Below, piece after piece: positions 1 through 41,742 of a DNA stretch of 64,000 bases. The notes under the pieces are model-generated. The model saw only the letters and a list, made by a program, of their open reading frames with translations. It searched no databases and was not told the origin of the DNA. Origin of the DNA: an uncultured Amylibacter sp. (GTDB lineage: Bacteria > Pseudomonadota > Alphaproteobacteria > Rhodobacterales > Rhodobacteraceae); the NCBI GenBank assembly GCA_964195605.1, contig CAXMSA010000002.1, forward strand, positions 608 through 64,607, in the 5' to 3' direction. Every line of letters begins with the position of its first letter. The first letter of the stretch is position 1. Both the position numbers and the translations under genes were made by a program.

Positions 1-908
1 CCCATATCAATCCGCGCCTCTTTGGTGGCAGATGCCATATGCGGTAGCAGCATCACGTTGTCGCGTCCGCATAGGCGTGGGTCAACTTCGCTGCCTTTCT
101 CAAAGACATCCAATCCAGCCCCAGCCAAACGTCCGCTTTCTAATGCGTCTATCAGGGCGGTTTCGTCAATCACTGAACCGCGCGCCGTGTTGATGACAAA
201 AGCACTTGGTTGTAGCATCTGCAAACGTTTCGTATTCAATAAATGATGGGTTTCAGGGGTGTTTGGGCAATGCACTGACAATACATCTGCCATCGGCAGC
301 ATGTCGTCGAGCTTTTCGATAAAGCTTGCATTCAAGTTACGTTCAATTTCAGGGTGCACGGGCTTGCGGTTATGATAAACTACCTTCATCCCAAACGCAT
401 TGGCGCGGCGCGCCACGGCCATACCAACGCGGCCCATGCCGATGATGGCCAGTGTTTTGCCGCCAATAGAGGAACCCAAAAATGCAGAAGGCGCCCAGCC
501 TTGCCATTTGCCTGATTGCAATGCGGCCGAGCCTTCTTTGAAGCGGCGCATCACGGTCAGGATCAAGGCCAGCGTCATATCGGCGCTGTCTTCAGATAAC
601 AGGCCGGGCGTGTTGGTGACCATGATCCCGTGCGCCTTGGCGGCCTCTATATCAATATGGTCATAGCCTGAACCATAGTTGGTGATCAGTTTCAGTTGCG
701 CGCCAGCCTTGGCCAGCGTTTTGGCATCAAGATTATCGCTAAGTGTCGGCACCAGAACATCAGCAGTTTGCAACGCATTAACCAATTGGGCGTGGGTGAA
801 AGGCGTGTCTGTTACATTCAATTTAGCATCAAACAATTCGGACAGTCGGCTTTCAACTGTCTCTGGCAACCGTCGCGTCACGACAACACTTAGTTTGGAA
901 TTGGACAT
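1..908 (-). CDS. D-isomer 2-hydroxyacid dehydrogenase (glyoxylate/hydroxypyruvate reductase-like), runs off the window edge
   Basis: Manual minus-strand translation from ATG at 908: MSNSKLSVVVTRRLPETVESRLSELFDA..., with later NAD-binding GMGRVG and HCPNTPETHHLLN segments typical of the family. No stop codon inside the window, so it is absent from the ORF track. Confidence 0.9.
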   Translation of the reverse strand, partial: MSNSKLSVVVTRRLPETVESRLSELFDAKLNVTDTPFTHAQLVNALQTADVLVPTLSDNLDAKTLAKAGAQLKLITNYGSGYDHIDIEAAKAHGIMVTNTPGLLSEDSADMTLALILTVMRRFKEGSAALQSGKWQGWAPSAFLGSSIGGKTLAIIGMGRVGMAVARRANAFGMKVVYHNRKPVHPEIERNLNASFIEKLDDMLPMADVLSVHCPNTPETHHLLNTKRLQMLQPSAFVINTARGSVIDETALIDALESGRLAGAGLDVFEKGSEVDPRLCGRDNVMLLPHMASATKEARIDM

Positions 909-1023
909 CATTCACCTATATGGCTGGATTTCTTTTGTCTATTCTGGCAAATTTTAAGACACAAGAACAGGGCGAAACAACCAGCCTTGTCAAAAAACAC
1001 TTTGGCCAGAGCAGGCATGTAAA

Positions 1024-1536
1024 ATGGTACAGTTGAATATGAAACCCCTTTTATTGGGTGTTATGGTAGCTATTCTGGCGGGGTTTCCTGCTATGACAGC
1101 GGCAACAGAACGTGGTGCCGTGACTAATTTGCTGTTGCCCCGGTTTGTTTCAATGAAAGCAAAACAGGGTAATGCGCGGCGGGGCCCGGGTTTGACATAC
1201 CGTATTGACTGGGTTTTCCAGCATATTAACACGCCGCTTCTGATTACTGCTGAATTTGGCCATTGGCGGCGAGTGCAAGACAAAGACGGGCAAGGTGGTT
1301 GGATGCATTACGCGCTTTTATCGGGTTCACGCACAGTTATTGTGAATAAGCCGGATATAACGTTGCGCATTAAGCCAAACCTGCAAGCCGCCCCTGCTGC
1401 CTATGCGCAAGAGGGAGCGATTGTCTTGCTGAATGAATGTTTGCCGGAATGGTGTTCTATTTCAGCAAAAGGCGACGAAAGCTGGGCGTTGAAAACCGAC
1501 ATATGGGGGGTTGGGGCGGATGAGTTACGTGATTAG
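1024..1536 (+). CDS. Exported bacterial SH3-domain protein (tandem SH3_4-like)
   Basis: N-terminal signal-like stretch, then LPRFVSMK..NARRGPG..YRIDW..GHWRRVQDKDGQGGWMH, the conserved alphaproteobacterial SH3 protein pattern. Confidence 0.8.
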   Translation: MVQLNMKPLLLGVMVAILAGFPAMTAATERGAVTNLLLPRFVSMKAKQGNARRGPGLTYRIDWVFQHINTPLLITAEFGHWRRVQDKDGQGGWMHYALLSGSRTVIVNKPDITLRIKPNLQAAPAAYAQEGAIVLLNECLPEWCSISAKGDESWALKTDIWGVGADELRD

Positions 1537-1639
1537 AACGTTTCGACTTAATGTTGAAACGCAATTTCCTGCCTCTCGCTTATGCTCGAACGGGATTTTC
1601 GTTCCGTGATGATTCAAGGTAAAGTCGAAACGCTATAAT
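1532..1639. repeat. 27-bp imperfect terminal inverted repeats (22/27 match) flanking a 54-bp core; MITE-like element or long hairpin
   Basis: 1532-1558 ATTAGAACGTTTCGACTTAATGTTGAA matches the reverse complement of 1613-1639; lies between convergent genes. Confidence 0.55.
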
Positions 1640-1645
1640 TAGGCT

Positions 1646-3670
1646 TTAAGCCAATCCACGCCCTTTCAACAAAGCATCAACCTTGGGTAGTGACCCGCGA
1701 AAGCCAAGATAGAGTTCTTCTGCATCCTTGGAACCGCCCGTCGCAAAGATATTGTCATGCAGGCGTTTTGCGGTATCCGCATCAAAAGGATCTCCGGCCT
1801 CGCGAAAGGCGGCAAAGGCATCTTCATCCATCACCTCTGACCACATGTAGCTGTAATAGGCACTGGAATAACTGTCGCCTGAAAACACATGGGCGAAATG
1901 CGGCGTGGCGTGGCGCATGGTGATAGCGGCAGGCATGCCGATATTGTCCAAAATCTCGGCCTGTTTTTGCATCGGGTCGCTGGGCGGGCTTTGGGTGTGA
2001 AAAGCCAGATCAACTAAAGCGCTGGCGGTATATTCCACCGTAGCAAAGCCCTGATCGAAATTGTCGGCAGCCAGCAAGCGTTGCAAAAGCTCTGCGGGGA
2101 TGGTTTCACCTGTGTCTGCGTGGCGGGCATATTGTTCCAGTACTTCGGGTACAGACAGCCAGTGTTCATAAAGCTGGCTGGGCAGTTCGACAAAATCGCG
2201 GGCCACAGATGTGCCAGAGATAAAGCCGTAGGTTACATCCGACAGCATTGAATGCAGCGCATGGCCGAACTCGTGAAACAAGGTGCGGGCATCGTCAAAG
2301 GTTAGCAAGCAGGGCTGTCCCTTTGGGGCTTTGGCGAAATTGCAGACATTCACAGTGATCGGGCGTATATCACCATCCAACGCTGATTGTGCGCGAAAAC
2401 GCGAGCACCATGCACCGGATCGTTTGGAAGAGCGTGCGAAATAATCGCCAATAAACACCGCCATGTGACGGTCGCCCTTCTTTACGTCCCAAGCGCGGGC
2501 GTCGGCGTGGTAAAGTGGGGCGTCTATCGGCGTGAAGCTTAACCCGAACAGCTTGTTGGCGCAGTCAAACGCGGCTTCAATCATTTGATCTAATTGGAAG
2601 TAGGGCTTCAGTTCAGCCTCATCCAGATCATGTTCAGCTTTACGCAGCTTTTCCGCGTAATAACGCCAGTCCCATGGGGCAAGATCGGCCTGAATATCAT
2701 CAGCGCGCATCAGCTTTGTCAGTTTTTCAGCATCCCTGTTGGCCGCAGCTTTTGCAGGTTCCCACACCGCCATCAGCAAATCCCGTACTGCCTCAGGGGT
2801 TTTGGCCATTTCTGTAGCCAGCTTAAAGTCTGAAAAAGTGTCATAACCCAACAACTGCGCCCGCTCTTGGCGCAGTTTCAGGGTTTCTGTAACAATTGCG
2901 CGATTATCCGTATCGCCACCATTTTCACCCCGCGCAACCCAAGCTTTAAACGCAACCGCGCGCAGATCACGGCGCGGTGAGAATTGTAAAAACGGCACGA
3001 TCAGAGAGCGTGACAAAGTGATGATATAGCCTGAAAGATCACGCTCTTTGGCGGCTTCATGGGCGGCTGCGGTCAGAAAGTCAGGGCATCCGGCCAGATC
3101 ATCCAAGGACAATTCCATAAACCATGTGCGTTCATCGGATAAAAGATTTTGGGTGAACGCGGTTCCCAACTCTGCCAACCGTTGTGAAATAGCCGCCAAC
3201 TGATCCCGCGCGTCACCCACAAGTTTTGCGCCTGACCGCACGAACATTTCATGGTATAATTCCAGCACACGTAATTGTTCGCCCGTTAATTCCAGATCAT
3301 TGCGGCCTTGATAAAGCGCATCAACGCGTCCGAACAGTTTGGCATTCATCATGGTTTCTGAATTAAACGCCGCCCATTTGGGCGCAAGATCGCGTTGCAA
3401 AACTTCCAGCACCTCGTTGGAGTTAGAGCCTGCAAGGTTCATGAAAACCCCGGCCACACGCTCCATGAAATGATCCGCGCGTTCCAGTGCCTCGATGGTG
3501 TTGGTAAATGTCGGGGCGTCTTGCGTGTCAGCCACCGCATTCACTGCTGCACGGGACTGTTTGAAGGCTTCTTCAAAGGCGGGTGCGAAATGTGCGTCGT
3601 TGATCTGGTCAAAAGGCGGTATTTCAAACGGGGTGGTCCATGTGGCGAAGAAGGGGTTTGTGGTGGTCAT
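1646..3670 (-). CDS. dcp: M3 family metallopeptidase (peptidyl-dipeptidase Dcp)
   Basis: HEFGH zinc motif, RDFVELPSQLYEHW, N-terminal NPFF..W.TPF..PPF. Likely start ATG 3670; the ORF track extends to 3748. Confidence 0.9.
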   Translation of the reverse strand: MTTTNPFFATWTTPFEIPPFDQINDAHFAPAFEEAFKQSRAAVNAVADTQDAPTFTNTIEALERADHFMERVAGVFMNLAGSNSNEVLEVLQRDLAPKWAAFNSETMMNAKLFGRVDALYQGRNDLELTGEQLRVLELYHEMFVRSGAKLVGDARDQLAAISQRLAELGTAFTQNLLSDERTWFMELSLDDLAGCPDFLTAAAHEAAKERDLSGYIITLSRSLIVPFLQFSPRRDLRAVAFKAWVARGENGGDTDNRAIVTETLKLRQERAQLLGYDTFSDFKLATEMAKTPEAVRDLLMAVWEPAKAAANRDAEKLTKLMRADDIQADLAPWDWRYYAEKLRKAEHDLDEAELKPYFQLDQMIEAAFDCANKLFGLSFTPIDAPLYHADARAWDVKKGDRHMAVFIGDYFARSSKRSGAWCSRFRAQSALDGDIRPITVNVCNFAKAPKGQPCLLTFDDARTLFHEFGHALHSMLSDVTYGFISGTSVARDFVELPSQLYEHWLSVPEVLEQYARHADTGETIPAELLQRLLAADNFDQGFATVEYTASALVDLAFHTQSPPSDPMQKQAEILDNIGMPAAITMRHATPHFAHVFSGDSYSSAYYSYMWSEVMDEDAFAAFREAGDPFDADTAKRLHDNIFATGGSKDAEELYLGFRGSLPKVDALLKGRGLA

Positions 3671-3844: not shown

Positions 3845-6337
3845 ATGAAAACCCATGTGAAAGCTCTGGTTGTTGGTGGTGGTGCTGTTGGTACAGGCAT
3901 TGCATATCATTTAGCGAAATACGGCTGGGATGATGTGATGTTGCTGGAACGCGATGAGCTGACTTCGGGGTCAACTTGGCACGCCGCTGGATTGTTGCCT
4001 TTGTTCAACATGGGTTATGCTACCACGCATTTGCATGATTATTCGGTTGAGTTTTATAAGTCGCTTGAGGCTGAAACTGGTCTGAACGCGGGATTTTCGA
4101 TTGTTGGCAACCTGCGCATGGCCCAAACCAAAGATCGTATGGATGAATATATGCTGTATGGTTCCGTCGCTGAAACTGTGGGCATTGAGTATCACCACCT
4201 GACGCCTAATGAGATCAAGGAACGCTGGCCACTTATTCGCACCGATGATTTGGAGGGTGCTATTTATCACCCGGGTGATGGCTATATCAACCCCGCCGAC
4301 GTGACCATGGCTATGGCCAAAGGCGCGCGCCAACGCGGTGTGACTATTGAACGGAAATGGCAGGTTGACGGGTACGAATGGACAGGGTCCGAATGGAAAG
4401 TTACCTGCACCAAGATGGTGGAAAAGGGCGGCAATCTGGTACCATCCGAAGAGCAAGTGATCATCACGGCTGAACATGTTGTGACGGCTACGGGCAACCA
4501 CGCGCAACGCACGGCACAATTACTGGGCATTAAAATCCCTGCAATCCCTGTGGAACACCAGTTTATTGTCACCGATAAAGACCCTGCTTTGGTGCAGTGG
4601 CGCTCAAACGGTAATCCTGAACACCCTGTGATCCGCGACGCGGATGCGCAATCTTATGTGCGTGAAGAACGTGGCGGTTGGATTTTGGGTGTTTATGAGG
4701 CCAACGCGCCGGCACGGTTTAAATACGGTGTGCCAGACAGCTTTCGCGCGGATCTATTCCCGCTGGAACTGGAACGCATCGAAGAACAATATATGGCGAT
4801 GATCCACAGGATGCCATCTTGTGAAGAAAGCGGCTTGAAAGACGATTTCAACGGCCCGATTTGCTACACACCTGATGGCAACCCGCTGGTGGGCCCAGCC
4901 CCCGGCCTGCGTAATATGTGGCTGGCGGAAGGCTTCTCTTTTGGCATTACCGCAGCAGGTGGTGTTGGCAATTATATGGCGCAAATGATGGTCGAAGGTG
5001 AGGCCGAGATCGATATGGCGTCACTTGACCCGAAACGCTACGGCTCTTGGATGACGACGGAATACGCCTCTGTGAAGAATGAGGAATGCTATGAGCACGT
5101 CTACATTTTGCACCACCCCGATGAAGAACGTGAAGCGGCACGCGGCCTTCGCACATCACCCGCTTATGACCGCCAAAAAGCGGCAGGCGCACAGTTTGGC
5201 CAAGTCAACGGCTGGGAGCGGCCTAATTATTACGCGCCTAACGGCTTTGACGATAACGCCGCACGGTCTTTTCGCCGTGGTGGTTGGTGGCAATATGTTG
5301 TGGAAGAGGCCAAAGCCATTCGTGAGGGCGTAGGCCTGATCGATGCGACTGCATTCACCAAGCATGTGGTCAAGGGGCCGGGTGCGACGCAATTCCTGGA
5401 TTGGTTTACGTGTAACAAGCTGCCGAAAATTGGCCGTATCAACCTAACTTACGCGCTGACATCGCACGGCACCACACGCACTGAATACACTATCGTGCGC
5501 AATGGCGAGGATGATTATTATCTTGTCTCTGCGGGTGCTTGGACAGCTTATGACGCGGATTATCTGCGCAAAGCCGCTGCCGATAAGGCCGAAGAGTTCG
5601 GCTATATCGAAATTCAGGATGTGACCAATCAATGGGGTGTGTTTGCGATTGCAGGGCCAAAAACCCGTGATGTTTTGAACAAGATCATCAAGGATGTTGA
5701 TCCTGTAACAGCGCTTAGCAACAAACACTTTCCGTGGTTGTCTGCACGCCAGATTGAACTGGGCATGTGCCCGGTCAATGCTATTCGTGTGGCTTATACT
5801 GGTGAGCTGGGTTGGGAATTGCACCACCCGATTGAGATGCAAAACTACCTATATGACTTGATCATGGAAGCGGGTGCCGATGTTGGCATCAAACTGGTGG
5901 GTGCGCGGGCGCAAAACTGGTTACGGCAAGAAAAATCCTACCGCGCGTTTGGTACCGAGTTGGGCCGTGATGCAACACCTGCCGAAGCTGATTTGCCACG
6001 TTTCATTGATCTGTCAAAAGATTTCTACGGCAAAGAGGCGATGGAAGCGAAGGGCATCCGTTCAAAATGTGTGACCCTGTTGATCGATGGACCTGCGGAC
6101 GCAGACCCATGGGGGCGTGAAGCACTTTATGACGGCGACAAAAAAGTCGGGCGTTTAACCTCCGGCGGGTATTCGGTTGCGTTCGAAAAATCAATCGGCA
6201 TGGGTTATCTGCCACCTGAATTGGCGGTTATGGGTCAAAAGCTGAAGGTCAGAATGTTCCGTGAATTGTGGGATGCGGAAGTGGTTGAAGACAGCCCTTA
6301 CAATCCAAATAATTCTACGATCAGGGTGGATGGGTAA
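3845..6337 (+). CDS. GcvT-family FAD-dependent oxidoreductase (dimethylglycine/sarcosine dehydrogenase-like)
   Basis: GGGAVG FAD motif, GSTWHAAG (covalent-FAD His), C-terminal aminomethyltransferase/THF domain (YTGELGWELH); 830 aa. Confidence 0.88.
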   Translation: MKTHVKALVVGGGAVGTGIAYHLAKYGWDDVMLLERDELTSGSTWHAAGLLPLFNMGYATTHLHDYSVEFYKSLEAETGLNAGFSIVGNLRMAQTKDRMDEYMLYGSVAETVGIEYHHLTPNEIKERWPLIRTDDLEGAIYHPGDGYINPADVTMAMAKGARQRGVTIERKWQVDGYEWTGSEWKVTCTKMVEKGGNLVPSEEQVIITAEHVVTATGNHAQRTAQLLGIKIPAIPVEHQFIVTDKDPALVQWRSNGNPEHPVIRDADAQSYVREERGGWILGVYEANAPARFKYGVPDSFRADLFPLELERIEEQYMAMIHRMPSCEESGLKDDFNGPICYTPDGNPLVGPAPGLRNMWLAEGFSFGITAAGGVGNYMAQMMVEGEAEIDMASLDPKRYGSWMTTEYASVKNEECYEHVYILHHPDEEREAARGLRTSPAYDRQKAAGAQFGQVNGWERPNYYAPNGFDDNAARSFRRGGWWQYVVEEAKAIREGVGLIDATAFTKHVVKGPGATQFLDWFTCNKLPKIGRINLTYALTSHGTTRTEYTIVRNGEDDYYLVSAGAWTAYDADYLRKAAADKAEEFGYIEIQDVTNQWGVFAIAGPKTRDVLNKIIKDVDPVTALSNKHFPWLSARQIELGMCPVNAIRVAYTGELGWELHHPIEMQNYLYDLIMEAGADVGIKLVGARAQNWLRQEKSYRAFGTELGRDATPAEADLPRFIDLSKDFYGKEAMEAKGIRSKCVTLLIDGPADADPWGREALYDGDKKVGRLTSGGYSVAFEKSIGMGYLPPELAVMGQKLKVRMFRELWDAEVVEDSPYNPNNSTIRVDG

Positions 6338-6365
6338 ACCACTCCGTATCACTACCGATTGACGT

Positions 6366-6400
6366 AAGAGCCGCGGCGGATAAAGCTGCGGCTCTTTCTT
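6366..6400 (+). terminator. Rho-independent terminator
   Basis: Stem AAGAGCCGCGGC/GCTGCGGCTCTT, 7-nt loop, followed by TCTT, just after the oxidoreductase stop. Confidence 0.75.
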
Positions 6401-6401
6401 A

Positions 6402-7268
6402 TTGGATCCCCCCATGCCGCAACACGCGCTATACAAATCCGTTGCCATCATGTTTCTGGCCATGACCATGATTGTAATTGGTGATGCGGTGGGTAAGATA
6501 CTATCCGCTTCGGGGTTTCGCCCTTTGTTTATCGCATGGGCGCGGTTTGCGCTGGGCGCGTTGCTTATTTTGCCATTCAGTGGTCTAACACGCGCAGAGC
6601 TGCCGAACTTGCTGAACAGGTTCGTCATTTTGCGCGCCTGCTTTATTATAGGGGGGGTAAGTTCGATCCTGACTGCGCTGAAAACCGAGCCGATTGCCAA
6701 TGTTTATGGTGGGTTCTTCATTGGCCCCGTGATCTCTTACATCCTGTCAGCTATAATCCTGAAAGAACGCATCACACTGTGGCGTAGTTTACTGTTGATG
6801 ATCAGTTTCATCGGTGTGCTTTTGGTTGTTAAACCGGGTTTCGGTATGACCCCCGGCATGGGCTTTGCGATACTTGCAGGCAGTTTTTACGGTGCTTTTC
6901 TAGTGGCCACACGCAGGTTGGCAGGCCAGTATCGCCCGCGGTTTTTGCTGGTCTCGCATTTGTTGATCGGGGCTGTTGTTCTGTTCCCTTTAAGCATTGG
7001 CCCAGTGCCGGAAATGACCCCTTTCCTGGGTGGTTTCATCATAATCAGTGCCATTGCCTCTGCGGTGGGTAATATGTTGTTGATCGTTGTAAGCAGAACA
7101 ACGCCTGCAAATGTTATGGCCCCATTGGTTTACAGCCAACTTATATCGGCCACGGTTGCCGGCGTGTTGATTTTTTCTGACTGGCCAGATTACTATAGTC
7201 TGGTCGGTTTAATGGTGATTATAATCGCGGGGGTATCCTCTTTCTGGTTGGCGCAACATGGAAAGTAG
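6402..7268 (+). CDS. DMT/EamA family transporter
   Basis: About 10 hydrophobic segments, two-repeat EamA layout (FIGP..LKERIT; APLVYSQL). Confidence 0.85.
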   Translation: MDPPMPQHALYKSVAIMFLAMTMIVIGDAVGKILSASGFRPLFIAWARFALGALLILPFSGLTRAELPNLLNRFVILRACFIIGGVSSILTALKTEPIANVYGGFFIGPVISYILSAIILKERITLWRSLLLMISFIGVLLVVKPGFGMTPGMGFAILAGSFYGAFLVATRRLAGQYRPRFLLVSHLLIGAVVLFPLSIGPVPEMTPFLGGFIIISAIASAVGNMLLIVVSRTTPANVMAPLVYSQLISATVAGVLIFSDWPDYYSLVGLMVIIIAGVSSFWLAQHGK

Positions 7269-7275
7269 GCCCTGC

Positions 7276-7438
7276 TTGTAAATTTACAAAATTTACAAGT
7301 TTACAAGCCAAGCTTTACACGACCCATACAAAAATACACGAAAAACCCTTGTTTTTCTTATATTTTCAACACTTCCCCGATCTAATTTTGTAAATATAGT
7401 CACAGAATATGACCCTGAGTCGTGACTGACTTTACAAA
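7276..7438. promoter_or_regulatory. Array of TTTACAA/TTGTAAA motifs upstream of aceA (candidate ScfR/RamB-family operator sites)
   Basis: Copies at 7276, 7283, 7292, 7300, 7314 (TTTACAC), 7387 and 7431, in both orientations. Confidence 0.55.
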
Positions 7439-7454
7439 ATCAAGGAACTGAAAA

Positions 7455-9038
7455 ATGCCTTACGATACGCAAAGCACAGAGTTGCAAAACCTGATCGCAC
7501 AGCACGGAACTGCTTGGGCGGCGATCAACCCTGAATATGTGGCACGCATGCGTGCGCAAAACAAATTTCAAACTGGCATTGATATTGCAAAATATACCGC
7601 CAAGATTATGCGCGAAGATATGGCCGCTTATGATGCGGACAGCTCACAATACACCCAGTCCTTGGGGTGCTGGCACGGGTTTATCGGCCAACAGAAAATG
7701 ATTTCGATCAAGAAGCATTTCGGTACAACCAAAGGTAAATACCTGTACTTGTCCGGTTGGATGATCGCGGCATTGCGTTCCGAGTTTGGCCCATTGCCTG
7801 ACCAAAGCATGCATGAAAAAAGCTCTGTACCTGCGTTAATCGAAGAGCTTTACACATTCTTACGTCAAGCGGATGCCCGTGAATTGGGGGGCTTGTTTCG
7901 TGCGTTGGATGCGGCATCTGATGCGGCTGCTAAAGCCGAAGTGCAAGCCAAGATCGACAATTTCGAAACCCACGTTGTGCCGATCATCGCTGACATTGAT
8001 GCAGGCTTTGGTAACGCGGAAGCGACATATCTGCTGGCCAAACAGATGATCGAAGCGGGTGCTTGTGCATTGCAAATCGAAAACCAAGTGTCAGATGAAA
8101 AACAATGTGGCCACCAAGACGGTAAAGTAACTGTACCGCACGAAGATTTTCTAGCGAAAATCCGTGCCTGTCGCTACGCCTTCCTTGAATTGGGTGTGGA
8201 TGACGGTGTTATTGTTGCTCGTACAGACAGCCTAGGCGCTGGCCTAACCAAACAAATCGCAGTTACCAACACACCAGGCGATCTGGGTGATCAATACAAC
8301 AGTTTTCTGGATTGTGACGAAGTGACTTTGGATGATATGGCCAATGGTGATCTGGTAATCAAACAAGACGGAAAGTTGATGCGCCCGAAACGTCTGCCAT
8401 CAAACCTGTTCCAGTTCAAAGCCGGCACAGGCGTGGCCCGCTGCATTCTGGATAGTGTCACAAGCCTACAAAACGGTGCAGATATGATCTGGATTGAAAC
8501 TGAAAAACCGCATATCGGCCAAATCGGCGAGATGATCAATGAAGTGCGTAAAGCCGTACCTAACGCGAAGCTGGTTTATAACAACTCACCGAGCTTCAAC
8601 TGGACTTTGAGCTTCCGCCAGCAAATCTTTGACACATGGAATGATGAAGGCAAAGACGTGTCAGCTTATGACCGTGATGGGTTAATGTCTGTGGATTACG
8701 ATGGCACTGATCTGGCCACGGAAGCGGACGATAAAATCCGTACTTTCCAAGCTGATGCAGCACGTGACGCGGGTATTTTCCACCATCTGATCACCCTGCC
8801 GACATACCACACGGCAGCCCTGTCTACAGACAATCTGGCGAAAGATTACTTCGGTTCCGAAGGCATGCTGGGTTATGTGGCTGGCGTTCAACGCAAAGAA
8901 ATCCGCCAAGGCATTGCCTGTGTGAAACACCAGAATATGTCAGGTTCCGACATGGGCGATGATCACAAGGAATACTTCTCAGGTGACGCGGCCCTAAAAG
9001 CGGCTGGCGAAGACAACACGATGAACCAGTTCGGTTAA
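7455..9038 (+). CDS. aceA: Isocitrate lyase (long, Pseudomonas-type)
   Basis: YLYLSGW, DIDAGFG, and catalytic loop QVSDEKQCGHQDGK; 527 aa. Confidence 0.95.
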   Translation: MPYDTQSTELQNLIAQHGTAWAAINPEYVARMRAQNKFQTGIDIAKYTAKIMREDMAAYDADSSQYTQSLGCWHGFIGQQKMISIKKHFGTTKGKYLYLSGWMIAALRSEFGPLPDQSMHEKSSVPALIEELYTFLRQADARELGGLFRALDAASDAAAKAEVQAKIDNFETHVVPIIADIDAGFGNAEATYLLAKQMIEAGACALQIENQVSDEKQCGHQDGKVTVPHEDFLAKIRACRYAFLELGVDDGVIVARTDSLGAGLTKQIAVTNTPGDLGDQYNSFLDCDEVTLDDMANGDLVIKQDGKLMRPKRLPSNLFQFKAGTGVARCILDSVTSLQNGADMIWIETEKPHIGQIGEMINEVRKAVPNAKLVYNNSPSFNWTLSFRQQIFDTWNDEGKDVSAYDRDGLMSVDYDGTDLATEADDKIRTFQADAARDAGIFHHLITLPTYHTAALSTDNLAKDYFGSEGMLGYVAGVQRKEIRQGIACVKHQNMSGSDMGDDHKEYFSGDAALKAAGEDNTMNQFG

Positions 9039-28996: not shown

Positions 28997-29257
28997 AATA
29001 AGAGCAACACAAACCGCCAAGTTATCCTGATTGGAATGGGCTTGCGCGTCGATCATCTTGGTGATCGACGCGGCAATCTTTTCAGCTGTTTGGTTTGCTG
29101 GCGTTATACATGTGATTAAATCTTGATCTGATAGGCTTAGAATACCGTCGGTCGCTGCAATTAAAATATCCCCGCTTTTTATGTTCGTTGTTTTCATATT
29201 AGGGGCGATACATCACGGTGCAACATGCTGCTTTCATGGACCTCACCAAGCGCGCAT
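28991..29257 (-). pseudogene. Remnant fusing a Ser/Thr kinase catalytic-loop fragment to a PP2C phosphatase C-terminal fragment
   Basis: 28991-29197 encodes GDILIAATDGI...DNLAV (PP2C metal-binding motifs); the adjacent frame 29198-29254 reads ALGEVHESSMLHRDVSP. Confidence 0.6.
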
Positions 29258-36155: not shown

Positions 36156-36983
36156 ATGGAAATTCTATCGGAAAACACCTGTTTTGGCGGGGTTCAGGGC
36201 GTTTACAAACATGCGTCAGTTGCCTGTCAGTGCGACATGACATTTGCAGTTTATCTGCCGCCACAGGCCAAGATACAAAAAGTGCCGGTACTGTGGTTTC
36301 TATCGGGCCTGACTTGTACCCACGAAAATGCCATGACCAAAGCGGGGGCGCAGGCTTGGGCTGCTAAATACGGGGTGGCTTTGGTGTTTCCTGACACCTC
36401 GCCACGCGGTGAAGCCGTGGCGAATGATGAGGCTTATGATCTGGGTCAAGGGGCCGGGTTTTATGTGGATGCTGTACAAAAACCCTGGGCACCGCATTTT
36501 AATATGTGGACATATGTGACCGAAGAATTGCCTAAACTGGTGACGGCTGAATTCGAAGTTTTAGAGGAAAAACAAGGTATTACTGGACATTCTATGGGCG
36601 GTCACGGGGCTTTGACCATTGCGATGACACTGCCTGATCGTTACCGATCTGTTTCTGCATTCGCACCGATTGCCAACCCATCCGCCTCTGATTGGGGGCG
36701 CAAGCAATTGGGGGCTTATCTGGGGGCGGATGAGGCGGCTTGGCTGGCGCATGATGCGTCATTGTTGATGGCAGAGCGCGGCTTTCATGCCCCGGTTCTA
36801 ATAGATCAGGGCACGGCGGATAATTTTCTGGATTTGTTAAAGCCGCAGGCGTTAGCAGATGCGATTATCGCACGCAAACAGGCCGCGACTTTGCGGATGC
36901 AAAACGGTTATGACCACAGTTATTTCTTCATTCAAAGCTTCATGGAAGATCATGTAAAGTTTCACGCTGAATTATTGAAGTGA
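36156..36983 (+). CDS. fghA: S-formylglutathione hydrolase
   Basis: LSGLTC, PDTSPRG, GHSMGGHGA, GYDHSYFFI. Confidence 0.95.
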   Translation: MEILSENTCFGGVQGVYKHASVACQCDMTFAVYLPPQAKIQKVPVLWFLSGLTCTHENAMTKAGAQAWAAKYGVALVFPDTSPRGEAVANDEAYDLGQGAGFYVDAVQKPWAPHFNMWTYVTEELPKLVTAEFEVLEEKQGITGHSMGGHGALTIAMTLPDRYRSVSAFAPIANPSASDWGRKQLGAYLGADEAAWLAHDASLLMAERGFHAPVLIDQGTADNFLDLLKPQALADAIIARKQAATLRMQNGYDHSYFFIQSFMEDHVKFHAELLK

Positions 36984-37477
36984 TACGATCTCGCGCCTGA
37001 AGAGTTGCTTGGCAACCTTTTCGGGGTCTTCCTCATAATTTCTTGCAGCCGTATGGCCCGCTTAGACTGCGCCTGCAATCAGGCTGTGGCTGGCGGCGTC
37101 GTCGATCAGTTCTAACGTTTGAAGTTTTGTATCGCTTATTATCAGCGTGTCATAAAGATTGTTGTGGCGGGTGCGTTTTGTGACCAGAAAAACCGCGCCG
37201 CAGGTGATGTCTTGTAATTGCCCTGAATAGGTGCAGGCCAGTTTGCAACCCGTGGCACTGATCGCGGCCAATTCTTGGTTTGTGTGAATTTTACATTCTT
37301 CGGTGCTGACAACGCCCCAATCACCTTCTGCTTTCATTGCATACATGGCGGCGTGGGCTTGTGGTCTGACATGGCCCATGCCGCAACAATGCGGGAATTG
37401 ATAGAAGCGGTTTGGTGCGGTGACTGGGCCGATTTTTACTGGTTCGAACAGGATGGAATATTTATTATTATCGGCAT
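36972..37477 (-). pseudogene. Trimethylamine/histamine dehydrogenase-like flavoprotein pseudogene with a large internal deletion
   Basis: N-terminus YSILFEPVKIGPVTAPNRFYQFPHCCGMGH..KAEGDWGVVSTEECKIH joined in frame to C-terminal-type sequence LVTKR..LY..LIAGAV*AGHTAAR..FRRE. Frameshift just after ATG 37477 and in-frame TAA at 37062-37064. Confidence 0.8.
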
Positions 37478-37522
37478 CCTTTGCACCTTAAATTTTGATT
37501 GTACTGTGCTTTATTTTATGGA

Positions 37523-37540
37523 ATTATACAAGTGTATAAT
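37523..37540. promoter_or_regulatory. Palindromic TetR operator candidate
   Basis: ATTATACA-AG-TGTATAAT in the divergent interval between the pseudogene and tetR. Confidence 0.65.
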
Positions 37541-37554
37541 AAGAAGCAGTTCAA

Positions 37555-38187
37555 ATGGTAGATTCGCGAAAAAGTTTTAAACGGGAAAGCTCTGACCAAC
37601 GTCAGGATGACCTGATTGAAGCCACGCTGTCGCTGATCGCGTCAGGCGGGCCTGAAGTTGCGACCGTGCGTAATATAGCACTTGAGGCGGGCGTAACACC
37701 GGGGCTGATAAGGCATTATTTTTCGACCAAAGAAGATTTGATCGGGGCGGCTTATGAGCGGCATATGACAACGATGCGCTACGCCGCATATTCGCCGCTT
37801 GAACAAGAGCTGCCCGGTGCGGTGGCACGTCTTGCAGCCCTTGTTAAAGCTTCTGTTTTACCACCTGTTGTCGATCCGCGTTCGCTAGCTTTATGGGCTG
37901 GTTTTATCCAGTCAGTTCAACGGGATGACGCAATGAAGGTGATCCACGAAAGAACCTATCGCCAGTTTAGGGATCAACTGCAGGAACTTATTAGGGACGC
38001 GTTTCTTGAGCTGGGACAGCCCAAAACTAAAACGGATTTGCGTAAGCTTGCGATTGCCTGCAACGCGGTTATGGACGGGTTGTGGTTAGAAGGCAGTGCG
38101 CTGCCAGATACGTTTCAAGCGGGCGAGTTGCCTGCGATTGGCTTGGCATCTGTGGGTGCAATTCTTGGCCTGAAACTGGAGGAATAA
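37555..38187 (+). CDS. TetR family regulator (BetI-like C-terminal domain)
   Basis: LIEATL..ATVRNIA.EAGVTPGLIRHYF..KEDL; A.MDGLWLE. Confidence 0.92.
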   Translation: MVDSRKSFKRESSDQRQDDLIEATLSLIASGGPEVATVRNIALEAGVTPGLIRHYFSTKEDLIGAAYERHMTTMRYAAYSPLEQELPGAVARLAALVKASVLPPVVDPRSLALWAGFIQSVQRDDAMKVIHERTYRQFRDQLQELIRDAFLELGQPKTKTDLRKLAIACNAVMDGLWLEGSALPDTFQAGELPAIGLASVGAILGLKLEE

Positions 38188-38189
38188 TA

Positions 38190-39383
38190 ATGCGATTTGC
38201 AAACATTACCGAACGGCTTGCCGGTTTGGGCAGTGAGAAATGGGCTGTGCATCTACATGCGTTAAAATTGCAGGCAGAGGGGCGTGATATTATCAAAATG
38301 ACCATTGGCGAACCCGATACCCCGCCGCCTGCCGCGTTGATAAAAACAGCGGTTGAAGCGATGCAAAATGGGCGCACACGCTATTCAAACGGGCGCGGTG
38401 AGCAGGGGCTTCTAGAGGCCCTTTCTAAACGCTATACGCAAAGCAGCGGGCGGGCGATTGCGCCTGACCAGTTCATCTGTCTACCCGGCACGCAATCGGC
38501 ACTTTATGTGGCGATGCAGGGCATCGCGCAAACGGGCGATGAGGTACTGGTTGGCGACCCCATGTATGCCACTTACGAAGGGGTGATTGCGGCGAGTGGT
38601 GCAACGTTGGTGCCGGTACCGATTAGGGCTGAAAACGGGTTTCGTTTGGCGGCGGCGGATATTGCGGCGCGTATAACCCCCAAGAGCCGTGTGATTTTGT
38701 TGAACAGTCCGCATAACCCGTCAGGCGCGATCTTGACGGCGGATGATATTGCGAAAATTGGTGCGTTGGCGATAAAACATGATCTGTGGATTGTAGCGGA
38801 TGAGGTCTATGAAGAGCTGGTGTTTGATGCCGCCACATTCGTGTCACCCTTGGCTTTTGCAGAACTGGCAGAGCGGGTGATTGTGGTCTCGTCAATTTCA
38901 AAATCCCATGCGTCACCGGGGTTTCGCAGTGGCTGGTGTATTGGGTCTTCTGACTTCATCAAACACCTGCTTTGTGTGGCTGAAACCATGCTGTTCGGCA
39001 ACCAGCCGTTTATCGCAGATATGACAGCGGAAGCGGTTTCAGAACCTTCCGAGGTGGCAGTAGGGATGAGGCGCAGGTTTGCCCGCCGTGCGGAGCTGGT
39101 GTTTGAGGCGTTGGACGGGGTTGCCGGGCTGCGTGTCAGCCGACCAGAAGCTGGAATGTTTGCACTGATAGATGTGTCGGCTTTGGGTATGGATAGCAAT
39201 GAATACGCGCTGGATCTGTTGCAAAATGCTGGTGTTGCGGTGATGCCGGGGACATCTTTTGGCGATTGCATTAAGGGCTGGGTGCGTATTGCGCTGACAG
39301 TTGATAACGAGACCACTTTGCGGGCCTGTGAACGGATTGCAGGTCACGCTAACGCTTTGATTAAATTAAAGGAAGCATCATGA
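38190..39383 (+). CDS. Class I/II PLP aminotransferase, AruH (arginine:pyruvate transaminase)-like
   Basis: MRFANITERLAG, TIGEPD, NSPHNPSG, DEVYE, SISKSHA..G.RSGW. Start ATG 38190 behind a GGAGG RBS. Confidence 0.85.
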   Translation: MRFANITERLAGLGSEKWAVHLHALKLQAEGRDIIKMTIGEPDTPPPAALIKTAVEAMQNGRTRYSNGRGEQGLLEALSKRYTQSSGRAIAPDQFICLPGTQSALYVAMQGIAQTGDEVLVGDPMYATYEGVIAASGATLVPVPIRAENGFRLAAADIAARITPKSRVILLNSPHNPSGAILTADDIAKIGALAIKHDLWIVADEVYEELVFDAATFVSPLAFAELAERVIVVSSISKSHASPGFRSGWCIGSSDFIKHLLCVAETMLFGNQPFIADMTAEAVSEPSEVAVGMRRRFARRAELVFEALDGVAGLRVSRPEAGMFALIDVSALGMDSNEYALDLLQNAGVAVMPGTSFGDCIKGWVRIALTVDNETTLRACERIAGHANALIKLKEAS

Positions 39384-40951
39384 AAACCATTGGGGAAGCG
39401 CTTGTAGCACAGTTAGAACAACGCGGCGTAGAAATTGTGTTTGGCATTCCGGGGGTACACACGGTCGAATTGTATCGCGGGCTGGCAAGTTCGGGTATTC
39501 GACATGTCACATCACGCCATGAACAAGGCGTGGGCTTTATGGCAGACGGTTATGCGCGGGTGTCGGGCAAGCCGGGGGTGGCTTTTGTGATCACTGGGCC
39601 GGGTTTGGCTAACACGTTGACACCGATGGGGCAGGCGCGTGCTGACAGTAGTTCTATGTTGGTGGTCTCTGGGGTCAACGCGACCACGACTTTGGGGCGC
39701 GGTTTGGGCTGTTTGCACGAATTGCCGGAACAACAGAAGATGACCGCAACAGTGGCTTTAGTCTCAACCCAACTGACGGCAGACAGTGATCTGACGCCTG
39801 CACTGGATCGCGCGTATGATCTGTTTGCGAATGCGCGCGGTGGTCCTGTGCATATCGAGGTGCCTACAGATGTGATGAAGCTGGCTTATACGGCTACGGA
39901 TGAGGTGCCTATTGCAAGCACGCTCAAAGACAAGCTGGATATAACAAAAGTAGCTGCGGTTTTAAGTGCCGCAAAATCGCCTGTGATTATAGCAGGTGGC
40001 GGCGCACGCCGGGCAGAAAGTGATCTGTTTGCGCTCGCGGTTCGGTTGGATGCGCCTGTGGTGGAAACCGTGAATGGGCGCGGACTATTGCATGGGGATG
40101 CATTATGTGTACCTGCCAGCCCCAGCCTGAAATCGGTTAATGCCTTGATTGAGGGCGCAGATGTAGTTCTGGCTTTGGGCACCGAGTTCGGACCGACGGA
40201 TTACGGCATGTGTGGCACGCTATGCCCACCCAAGATTGCCAAGCTGATCCGTGTGGATATTTGCACCGAACAACTGGCACGCCACCCTGTGGACCATGGC
40301 ATATGCGGGCGGGTGGAAGATGTTTTGCCTGATCTGCTTGTGGCCTTGGGTGATGGTGCTGCGCAACATAATGGCGCAAGCCGTGCAGATGCGGTCAGAC
40401 GTGCGGCATGGGATGAGGTTGGGGAAGATTACCGGCTGCAAATTGGCCTGCTTGAGACCATTCAAGCGGCGATGCCAAACGCGATACTGATCGGGGACAG
40501 CACCCAAGTGACCTATGCGGGCAACCTTTATTATGACCACGACCGTGCGGGCGGCTGGTTTAATGCAGCCACGGGTTTTGGCGCACTGGGCTTTTCCATT
40601 CCGGCCTGTATCGGGGCGGCTTTGGCTGATCCAACGGCACAGGTGGTGTGTTTGGTCGGCGACGGCGGCGCGCAGTTTTCAATGCCTGAGATTATGGTGG
40701 CGGTGGATGAAAAGCTACCCATTCTGTTCATTGTTTGGAACAATGAGGGTTATCAGGAAATTGAAACCTCTATGGCGCGTGCGGGGGTGGCTGTTGTTGG
40801 CTGTGATCCGACACCACCCAAGTTTGAATATATTGCCAAGGCTTGCGGCATACCGTTTCAAAGCTGTGAAATGACAAAAGAGGGTTTGGCCGAAGCGTTA
40901 CGGGGTGAACGGCCATTAAGTGGCCCTGCGATGATCGAAATTAAAGCTTAG
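39380..40951 (+). CDS. ThDP-dependent decarboxylase, AruI (5-guanidino-2-oxopentanoate decarboxylase)-like
   Basis: FGIPGVHTVELY, RHEQGVGFMADGYAR, GDGG-X-NN ThDP motif; translationally coupled to the AruH-like gene. Confidence 0.82.
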   Translation: MKTIGEALVAQLEQRGVEIVFGIPGVHTVELYRGLASSGIRHVTSRHEQGVGFMADGYARVSGKPGVAFVITGPGLANTLTPMGQARADSSSMLVVSGVNATTTLGRGLGCLHELPEQQKMTATVALVSTQLTADSDLTPALDRAYDLFANARGGPVHIEVPTDVMKLAYTATDEVPIASTLKDKLDITKVAAVLSAAKSPVIIAGGGARRAESDLFALAVRLDAPVVETVNGRGLLHGDALCVPASPSLKSVNALIEGADVVLALGTEFGPTDYGMCGTLCPPKIAKLIRVDICTEQLARHPVDHGICGRVEDVLPDLLVALGDGAAQHNGASRADAVRRAAWDEVGEDYRLQIGLLETIQAAMPNAILIGDSTQVTYAGNLYYDHDRAGGWFNAATGFGALGFSIPACIGAALADPTAQVVCLVGDGGAQFSMPEIMVAVDEKLPILFIVWNNEGYQEIETSMARAGVAVVGCDPTPPKFEYIAKACGIPFQSCEMTKEGLAEALRGERPLSGPAMIEIKA

Positions 40952-40959
40952 AGGATAGT

Positions 40960-41742
40960 ATGACTGAACCTACATTTGAATTTACCCGCGCCGTCACCCG
41001 TAAGCCCAGTGCCAGTATTGTAGATGGGTTGCGTGCATTTGATATTGGTACGCCTGATCACGCGCAGATGCTTGATGATCATGCGCATTATGTGAAGACC
41101 TTGCGTGAAACTGGTGCTGACGTGGTGGAATTGCCAGCTTTAGGGGCCTACCCCGATGCGGTGTTTGTTGAAGACACAGCACTTTGCCTGCCCCAAGGGG
41201 CGATCATGATGCGCCCTGGTGCGCCAAGCCGTGCGGGTGAAGTGGATGGCATGGCCCCGGTTTTGCGCGAGTTTTACGATGTGGTTCTGGATATTAACGG
41301 CCCCGGATTTATTGAAGGTGGGGATATTCTGGTCACGTCCATGGAAATACTGGTGGGGCGGTCAGACCGCACCGATGCAGCAGGGGTGGCAGAATTGCAA
41401 AGCCTTGTAGCACCTTGGGGTTACATTGTGCGTGAGGTGTTTACGCCCGAAGGTGTGCTACATTTCAAAACCGATTGTTCGCTGTTGGATGGGGAAACCA
41501 TTTTGGCAACAAAACGGCTGGAAGCTTCGGGATGTTTTGAAGGCTACCGGGTTATTCATACTGCTGAAGGTGAAGAGGCGGCAGCGAATGCGATCCGGTT
41601 CAATCAATTTGTGCTGATGGCGGCAGGCTTTCCAAAGACCGCAAAGCGATTACGCGATGCGGGTTTTGAGGTGCGCGAGATCAACAACACGGAATGTGCC
41701 AAGTTGGACGGCGGCATGTCGTGCCTTTCGTTGCGATTTTAA
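40960..41742 (+). CDS. Dimethylarginine dimethylaminohydrolase (DDAH)/amidinotransferase family protein
   Basis: PDAVFVED, IEGGD, LHFKT, DGGMSCLS (catalytic Asp/Glu, His, Cys). Confidence 0.88.
   Translation: MTEPTFEFTRAVTRKPSASIVDGLRAFDIGTPDHAQMLDDHAHYVKTLRETGADVVELPALGAYPDAVFVEDTALCLPQGAIMMRPGAPSRAGEVDGMAPVLREFYDVVLDINGPGFIEGGDILVTSMEILVGRSDRTDAAGVAELQSLVAPWGYIVREVFTPEGVLHFKTDCSLLDGETILATKRLEASGCFEGYRVIHTAEGEEAAANAIRFNQFVLMAAGFPKTAKRLRDAGFEVREINNTECAKLDGGMSCLSLRF

Follow-up and report, generated by a model that had tools for sequence, protein, structure and literature searches.

A decayed amine dehydrogenase gene of the trimethylamine/histamine dehydrogenase family in an uncultured Amylibacter sp.

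What lies on the minus strand between an S-formylglutathione hydrolase gene (fghA) and a TetR-family regulator gene in the genome of an uncultured Amylibacter sp.? The DNA analysed here, a 64-kb stretch of contig CAXMSA010000002.1, is referred to as the window, and all coordinates are those of the window unless another locus is named. For the interval in question, the list of open reading frames (ORFs) shows only one ORF of 105 amino acids. The original prediction, made from the letters of the sequence, described this ORF as a misleading chimera within a gene similar to those of trimethylamine dehydrogenase (TMADH) and histamine dehydrogenase that had been reduced to its two ends. The comparisons below bear this out. 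The stretch at 36972..37477 (minus strand) begins with an out-of-frame ATG and ends with the original stop codon. It once encoded an iron-sulfur flavoprotein amine dehydrogenase, a member of the TMADH, dimethylamine dehydrogenase (DMADH) and histamine dehydrogenase family, and is now a fixed pseudogene without function. It is very probably a real pseudogene, disabled by one internal in-frame deletion, a frameshift and a stop codon.

An all-through translation of window 36940-37560 (minus strand) was compared with the ORF list. One frame over the remnant reads ...KDADNNKYSILFEPVKIGPVTAPNRFYQFPHCCGMGHVRPQAHAAMYAMKAEGDWGVVSTEECKIHTNQELAAISATGCKLACTYSGQLQDITCGAVFLVTKRTRHNNLYDTLIISDTKLQTLELIDDAASHSLIAGAV, a stop codon, AGHTAARNYEEDPEKVAKQLFRREIVSLQ and a second stop codon. 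This frame holds two pieces, both on the minus strand. The N-terminal piece, DNNKYSILFEPVKIGPVTAPNRFYQFPHCCGMGH...STEECKIH (DNNKYSIL...STEECKIH; 63 codons, 37284..37472), corresponds to the first ~60 positions of the Oxidored_FMN barrel. The C-terminal piece, TNQELAAISATGCKLACTYSG...FRREIVSLQ (TNQELAAI...FRREIVSLQ; 103 codons, 36975..37283), takes in the final part of the ADP-binding domain together with the C-terminal tail, and is directly followed by the original stop codon (36974..36972, minus strand). Pieces of about 55 and about 100 residues had been anticipated; both exist, and their exact sizes are the 63 and 103 codons given here.

Both termini are collinear with solved enzymes of the family. 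In a phmmer search against the PDB, query residues 5-72 and 65-168 matched residues 6-73 and 586-693, respectively, of the 696-residue histamine dehydrogenase 6de6 (E=2e-31), and the same two-piece layout was found on 3k30. The TMADH structure 1djn gave a strong match at the N-terminus of the remnant and a weak to marginal one at the C-terminus. In a Pfam search, the first 66 residues of the remnant matched positions 2-60 of the 342 in Oxidored_FMN (PF00724; E=1.7e-7, 31.3 bits against a gathering score of 27), and no Pfam family was detected for the C-terminal piece alone. The remnant also retains the Cys codon of the PHC motif (37386..37388, minus strand), the equivalent of TMADH Cys30, with query Cys32 pairing with chain residue 30 of 1djn. 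In TMADH this residue bears the covalent 6-S-cysteinyl flavin mononucleotide (FMN).

Collinear homology of both termini and the PHC Cys are the family traits that the remnant has kept. Its remaining 166 sense codons compare with an uninterrupted frame of ~680-730 codons in the family. The Oxidored_FMN TIM barrel is incomplete, covering profile positions 2-60 of 342 versus 2-339 in an intact ortholog, and the four-cysteine 4Fe-4S motif that follows the barrel (CxxCxxC...C) is gone, having lain inside the deleted codons 66-582. Of the ADP-binding Rossmann-type domain, the last ~100 residues remain. As the barrel, the Fe-S motif, the ADP-binding domain and the intact frame are all wanting, the remnant is a pseudogene derived from the TMADH/DMADH/histamine dehydrogenase family and not a member enzyme.

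Intact orthologs define what has been lost. A scan of one genome per species with the N-terminal piece found 561 relatives, the best two of which are Amylibacter metagenome-assembled genomes (MAGs; loci L001 and L002) with 92% identity to the piece used; the N-terminal remnant as delimited above has ~90% amino-acid identity to both. L002 encodes an uninterrupted ortholog of 685 amino acids (848..2905 of that locus), flanked by a divergent TetR gene of 210 amino acids and by a convergent fghA of 275 amino acids whose 3′ end overlaps the ortholog. L001 encodes an intact ortholog of 683 amino acids from an ATG at 5995 (5995..8046 of that locus) in the same arrangement. On its tetR side L001 carries, as does the window, an amidinotransferase/DDAH-like gene, a thiamine pyrophosphate (TPP) enzyme gene, an aminotransferase gene and tetR, and on the other side, again as in the window, fghA, an amine oxidase gene and a cupin gene. 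The order tetR, dehydrogenase gene and fghA is thus shared by L001 and L002, and the window carries the same locus with its middle gene collapsed.

Full-length alignments of the L002 protein score 747 bits with 3k30, 702 bits with 6de6 and 546 bits with TMADH. It comprises an Oxidored_FMN domain (residues 10-338) and a Rossmann-type domain (Pyr_redox/NAD_binding_8, residues 391-617), and between these two domains the orthologs carry the cysteine motif CIGCNICVSSDNLGVPIRC (CIGCNIC...C). When the L002 protein was compared with the window by tblastn, residues 4-71 (85% identity) and 581-685 (71% identity) were matched. The original prediction had expected exactly such a pair of matches, at the N- and C-termini of one subject, and phmmer and tblastn both returned it. 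The two remnant pieces were the only tblastn matches in the whole 64-kb window, which holds no paralog of the gene.

Alignment to the closest intact orthologs resolves the loss into one in-frame deletion whose junction falls exactly on Ile-His codons. In a blastn comparison, window 38300-37285 matched L002 15-1041 and window 37290-36145 matched L002 2587-3732, with 6 nt of the window (37285..37290) shared by the two matches. In codon register, the His codon ending at L002 position 1042 has been joined to the sequence after the His codon ending at 2593. The deletion therefore measures 1551 bp (517 codons) relative to L002 and 1548 bp (516 codons) relative to L001, and is in frame with respect to both; the in-frame loss of roughly 1.6 kb proposed earlier stands, with these as its exact sizes. 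With codons 66-582 the gene lost the 4Fe-4S cysteine motif, all but a small part of the FMN-binding TIM barrel and the greater part of the ADP-binding domain.

At the junction (AAAATTCAC) the window reads GAATGT AAA ATT CAC / ACA AAC CAA. The codons AAA ATT CAC occupy 37284..37292 (minus strand), with ATT CAC at 37289..37284, which is where the original prediction had placed the joint between EECKIH and TNQEL (near 37285). In the intact orthologs, Ile-His codons are present at both breakpoints. Those of L001 lie in GAAATCCAC on the left and GAAATTCAC on the right (GAA ATC CAC and GAA ATT CAC, identical at 8/9 bases), and those of L002 in GAAATCCAT on the left and ACAATTCAC on the right (GAA ATC CAT and ACA ATT CAC, or AATCCAT against AATTCAC). 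One copy of the repeat is left at the window junction, so the breakpoints lie in a short direct repeat. This repeat, and with it the microhomology that the original prediction had raised, holds as far as orthologs of ~80% identity show it, these being its basis and not the parent sequence.

The frame that survived the deletion carries two further lesions, both of which had been predicted. Codon 2 lacks one base, just after 37473. Where L001 has ATG CCT GGA AAC AAT AAA TAT and L002 has ATG TCC GGT AAC GCC AAG TAT, the window has ATG CC- GAT AAT AAT AAA TAT. Because of this missing base, the ancestral ATG start (37475..37477, minus strand) is out of frame with the body of the gene. Downstream of the junction, a premature TAA (37062..37064, minus strand), between AV and AGH in the translation, replaces a conserved Tyr codon that is TAT in both L001 and L002. 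The 105-residue ORF (37062..37379, minus strand) runs from an internal Met after the PHC motif, across the junction, to this TAA, and is an artefactual chimera. Measured against the intact orthologs at the corresponding locus, the gene thus carries three disabling lesions, as a pseudogene does.

Evidence that these lesions are present in the organism comes from a second assembly and from metagenomes. Locus L081, a 13-kb contig of NCBI assembly GCA_964195445.1, is 98.8% identical to the window (77 mismatches and one gap over 6.3 kb) and encodes an identical 105-residue ORF. Within the remnant it differs only at 37397, and therefore shares the deletion, the frameshift and the TAA. Four metagenome runs from marine or sediment samples (X1-X4) were also compared, by placing their Logan contigs on window 36300-38200. 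A 2768-nt contig from X1 spans the stretch with 18 differences and no gap. The junction is crossed by an X2 contig (37122-37341, no differences) and by X3 contigs (37191-37317 and 37288-37382), and X4 shows depth in the bin containing the junction. Contigs of at least three of the four runs carry the junction, and no loose contig ends were found at 37285-37290 among the Logan contigs of the four runs. X1, X2 and X3 come from one study and one run may be the window's own source, so these observations are not all independent; the deletion is nonetheless carried by at least three distinct sequences, namely the window contig, L081 and the divergent X1 strain. The original prediction had left misassembly to be excluded with reads; the junction recurs in L081 and in contigs of at least three of the four runs, with contigs, not raw reads, as the basis of the check. 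A 215-nt contig of X3 (depth 4.4) seems to join 36967 to 37522 and so to skip the whole remnant. It was dismissed as unreliable: the joint has just 21 nt on its shorter side, and the contig, 90-95% alike, probably derives from another organism or is spurious.

The residues that remain have also changed at positions well conserved in the family. Among 71 intact relatives taken from the fetched loci, 51 columns of the remnant are conserved to 90% or more. Five of them are altered in the window (V>F, R>Y, G>D, G>D and P>H), compared with a family median of one deviation and with none in L001 or L002; a sixth counted deviation (P>T) was an artefact of the piece boundaries and was excluded. The first of these changes lies beside the FMN-linking Cys. 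Position 37397 is A in the window, which gives Phe in YQFPHC, and C in L081 and all four runs, which gives the ancestral Val; the V>F change is thus a substitution private to the window genome. The window also differs from all four runs at 37479 and 38116.

The co-occurring X1 strain, which has the same deletion, differs from the window unevenly. Fourteen of its 18 differences over 1.9 kb fall within 37110-37190, where they change 9 of ~27 residues. In this patch the X1 and window alleles are each ancestral-like, matching the orthologs, at about half of the sites. The patch points to recombination, or to an older divergence, of this tract within the pseudogene. Nine residue changes between the two strains are hard to reconcile with purifying selection on a protein.

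Could the collapsed gene be an artefact of assembly, or the remnant a gene after all? It is extremely improbable that the genome holds an intact gene which the assembler collapsed across the short Ile-His repeat. The junction does sit in a short repeat and all support for it comes from short-read assemblies or Logan contigs, but a repeat of 6-9 nt is far under the k-mer size of any assembler. The same junction is found in the window's 69-kb contig, in L081 and in the separately assembled contigs of at least three of the four runs, among them the gapless X1 contig, with no contig breaking off at the joint. The frameshift and the stop codon are, in addition, disabling lesions independent of the junction. 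That the remnant still functions, with the 105-residue chimera or a frameshift or read-through product serving as a small protein such as a regulator or binding partner, is very improbable. The deletion is in frame, the ORF exists and has been called as a gene in public assembly GCA_964195445.1, and the upstream promoter/operator interval is conserved. However, a deletion has a 1-in-3 chance of being in frame, and the intact tetR operon on the other strand sufficiently explains the conserved interval. The ORF begins at an internal Met past the PHC motif, ends at a nonsense codon in place of a conserved Tyr and lacks a Pfam family, in the public gene call as well; its protein cluster has one member, on 2 contigs. 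It has neither barrel nor Fe-S site nor nucleotide-binding site, family-conserved residues have been replaced, and strains sharing the deletion differ at nine residues in the ORF, so purifying selection is probably not acting on it. None of the RNA runs contains the remnant stretch, which is weak evidence in the same direction. No Rfam match was found in 36800-37700, and a promoter scan gave no sigma-70-like site and a single terminator-like hairpin, no more than expected by chance.

A real pseudogene could have reached its present form by more than one route. Slipped mispairing or illegitimate recombination typically leaves one copy of a short direct repeat at the breakpoints, and the deletion probably arose through microhomology of the short Ile-His direct repeats, as judged from the aligned orthologs. 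It is unlikely, albeit not to the degree of the foregoing alternatives, that the gap accumulated through several successive smaller deletions or arose by a mechanism not involving microhomology, the Ile-His identity then being coincidental. Bacterial pseudogenes generally shrink by many deletions (deletional bias), and the repeat is imperfect in both orthologs. Nevertheless, both flanks align up to the same two codons, overlapping by 6 nt and leaving neither filler nor scar, a pattern that speaks for a single event. The flanks are ungapped in ortholog register except for the missing base of codon 2, where more indels would be expected from piecemeal loss, and two arbitrary breakpoints would both fall on Ile-His in ~1 of 400 cases at the protein level. 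A further view, improbable as a whole, is that the loss of the dehydrogenase was adaptive and rewired guanidino- or methyl-amine catabolism or, alternatively, that the 5′ stub and operator act as a regulatory leader or decoy. On the first of these readings, a marine-sediment Amylibacter-like lineage might have discarded the amine-oxidising step while keeping intact fghA, tetR and the co-regulated genes for the aminotransferase, the 5-guanidino-2-oxopentanoate decarboxylase and the DDAH-like enzyme. If the loss were adaptive, the intact orthologs would define a new specificity within the family, for instance for agmatine, dimethylamine or a methylated guanidino amine.

The preferred explanation remains the neutral decay of a gene disabled by one deletion and two small lesions. 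The ancestor, in a lineage that its best matches place among Amylibacter-like marine Rhodobacteraceae, would have carried an intact gene of ~685 codons, divergent to the tetR operon and convergent with fghA. A single 1551-bp deletion would then have removed codons 66-582, most likely by replication slippage or illegitimate recombination between the Ile-His repeats (AT[C/T]CAC, to which the AA before it may belong). The base lost from codon 2 and the TAT>TAA nonsense change, earlier or later than this deletion, are disabling in their own right, conserved residues have been replaced as well, and the loss would represent the neutral decay of a gene no longer needed. Some observations weigh against parts of this account. 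The repeat, being matched at 5/7 to 8/9 bases in orthologs of ~80% identity, is imperfect, and the microhomology could be partly coincidence. The evidence for the junction comes from assembler contigs, which drop rare variants and could hide rare intact alleles. Pairwise Nei-Gojobori dN/dS values, compared between the remnant and the flanking genes, were uninformative because dS was saturated (~1-1.9). Lastly, the window and L081 differ at 1 of 494 nt in the remnant, no more than in the flanking genes, and faster drift is thus not demonstrated on the short time scale that separates this pair.

The closest solved relatives of the lost enzyme are the histamine dehydrogenases of Nocardioides simplex (3k30) and Rhizobium sp. 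(6de6), which are the best matches to both pieces of the remnant and to the L002 ortholog. Shared features include the N-terminal motif FEPxxIGPxxxxNRFYQVPHC, with the FMN-linking Cys, and the C-terminal motif GDAxxPxxIAxAxxxGxxAAR. The window copy, by contrast, has lost ~517 of the 685 residues and can no longer work as an enzyme, and the context of its locus would point to guanidino or methylated amines rather than histamine. TMADH of Methylophilus W3A1 (1djn, 2tmd) and DMADH belong to the same family and share its architecture, in which Cys30 carries 6-S-cysteinyl FMN and a 4Fe-4S cluster is combined with an ADP-binding domain. A formaldehyde-releasing enzyme would fit well beside fghA; TMADH is, however, a weaker match to the intact ortholog than histamine dehydrogenase (546 versus 747 bits).

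Spontaneous deletions between short direct repeats, attributed to slipped mispairing or illegitimate recombination, are known in bacteria, the classic E. coli lacI deletions being one example. As in these, the endpoints in the window would, judging by the orthologs, lie in a short direct repeat of which one copy was retained; a dispensable interior was lost and the neighbours are intact. There is no difference in kind between the two; the window offers a natural, fixed case from an uncultured marine lineage, with a repeat reconstructed from orthologs. Gene decay by short-repeat deletion is textbook material, and what is new here is this instance and the correction of annotation that follows. 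Annotations should mark the 105-residue ORF (37379..37062) as belonging to a pseudogene, and metabolic reconstructions should not credit this lineage with an amine dehydrogenase at this locus. Beyond this, the remnant provides a tidy natural example of a probable deletion between short direct repeats and shows that this lineage can do without one gene of a conserved, putative arginine/guanidino-amine locus. By itself, the remnant raises no new question, being a clean and ordinary case of bacterial gene decay.

Recurrence of the deletion among relatives was sought at nine loci without a long ORF. Seven of these are cut by contig ends and one (L022) is intact, leaving L062 as the only broken one. 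In L062, from an alphaproteobacterial MAG, the ortholog (5992-7965 of that locus) appears as four tblastn pieces in different frames, and represents either another decaying copy or indel errors of a long-read assembly.

The genes on either side of the remnant are intact. The convergent fghA (36156..36983, plus strand) scores 430 bits with TIGR02821 against a cut-off of 282, and its 3′ end overlaps that of the remnant by 12 nt. On the other side, a divergent gene for a BetI-like TetR-family regulator (37555..38187, plus strand) is the first of an intact run (37555-41742) that is syntenic with L001 and comprises tetR and the genes for an aminotransferase, a TPP enzyme and an amidinotransferase/DDAH-like protein. 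The aminotransferase is of class I/II. The TPP enzyme passes NCBIfam NF005712 (5-guanidino-2-oxopentanoate decarboxylase) with 664 bits against a cut-off of 500. The last protein of the run has 260 amino acids, belongs to the arginine-deiminase/amidinotransferase superfamily and ends in ...DGGMSCLSLRF. The run looks like a catabolic operon for arginine or a guanidino compound.

This setting offers two low-confidence suggestions on the ancestral role of the lost enzyme. Histamine dehydrogenases oxidise agmatine and putrescine too (PMC10180351), so agmatine, or a guanidino amine akin to it, may have been the substrate of the lost enzyme. Another candidate is dimethylamine set free by a DDAH-like enzyme, in which case fghA would have dealt with the formaldehyde. 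A literature search on dimethylamine dehydrogenase together with DDAH found nothing, and neither did one on 6L6J.

The divergent interval between the remnant and tetR, 77 bp long, contains a perfect 7-2-7 palindrome, TTATACAAGTGTATAA (37524..37539), which is conserved in L001 and L002. This palindrome is a probable TetR operator. Presumably, it has been kept although the gene on one side is dead since the tetR operon on the other is still in use. The only other near match to TTATACAAGTGTATAA in the window is at 29104-29119, with two mismatches.

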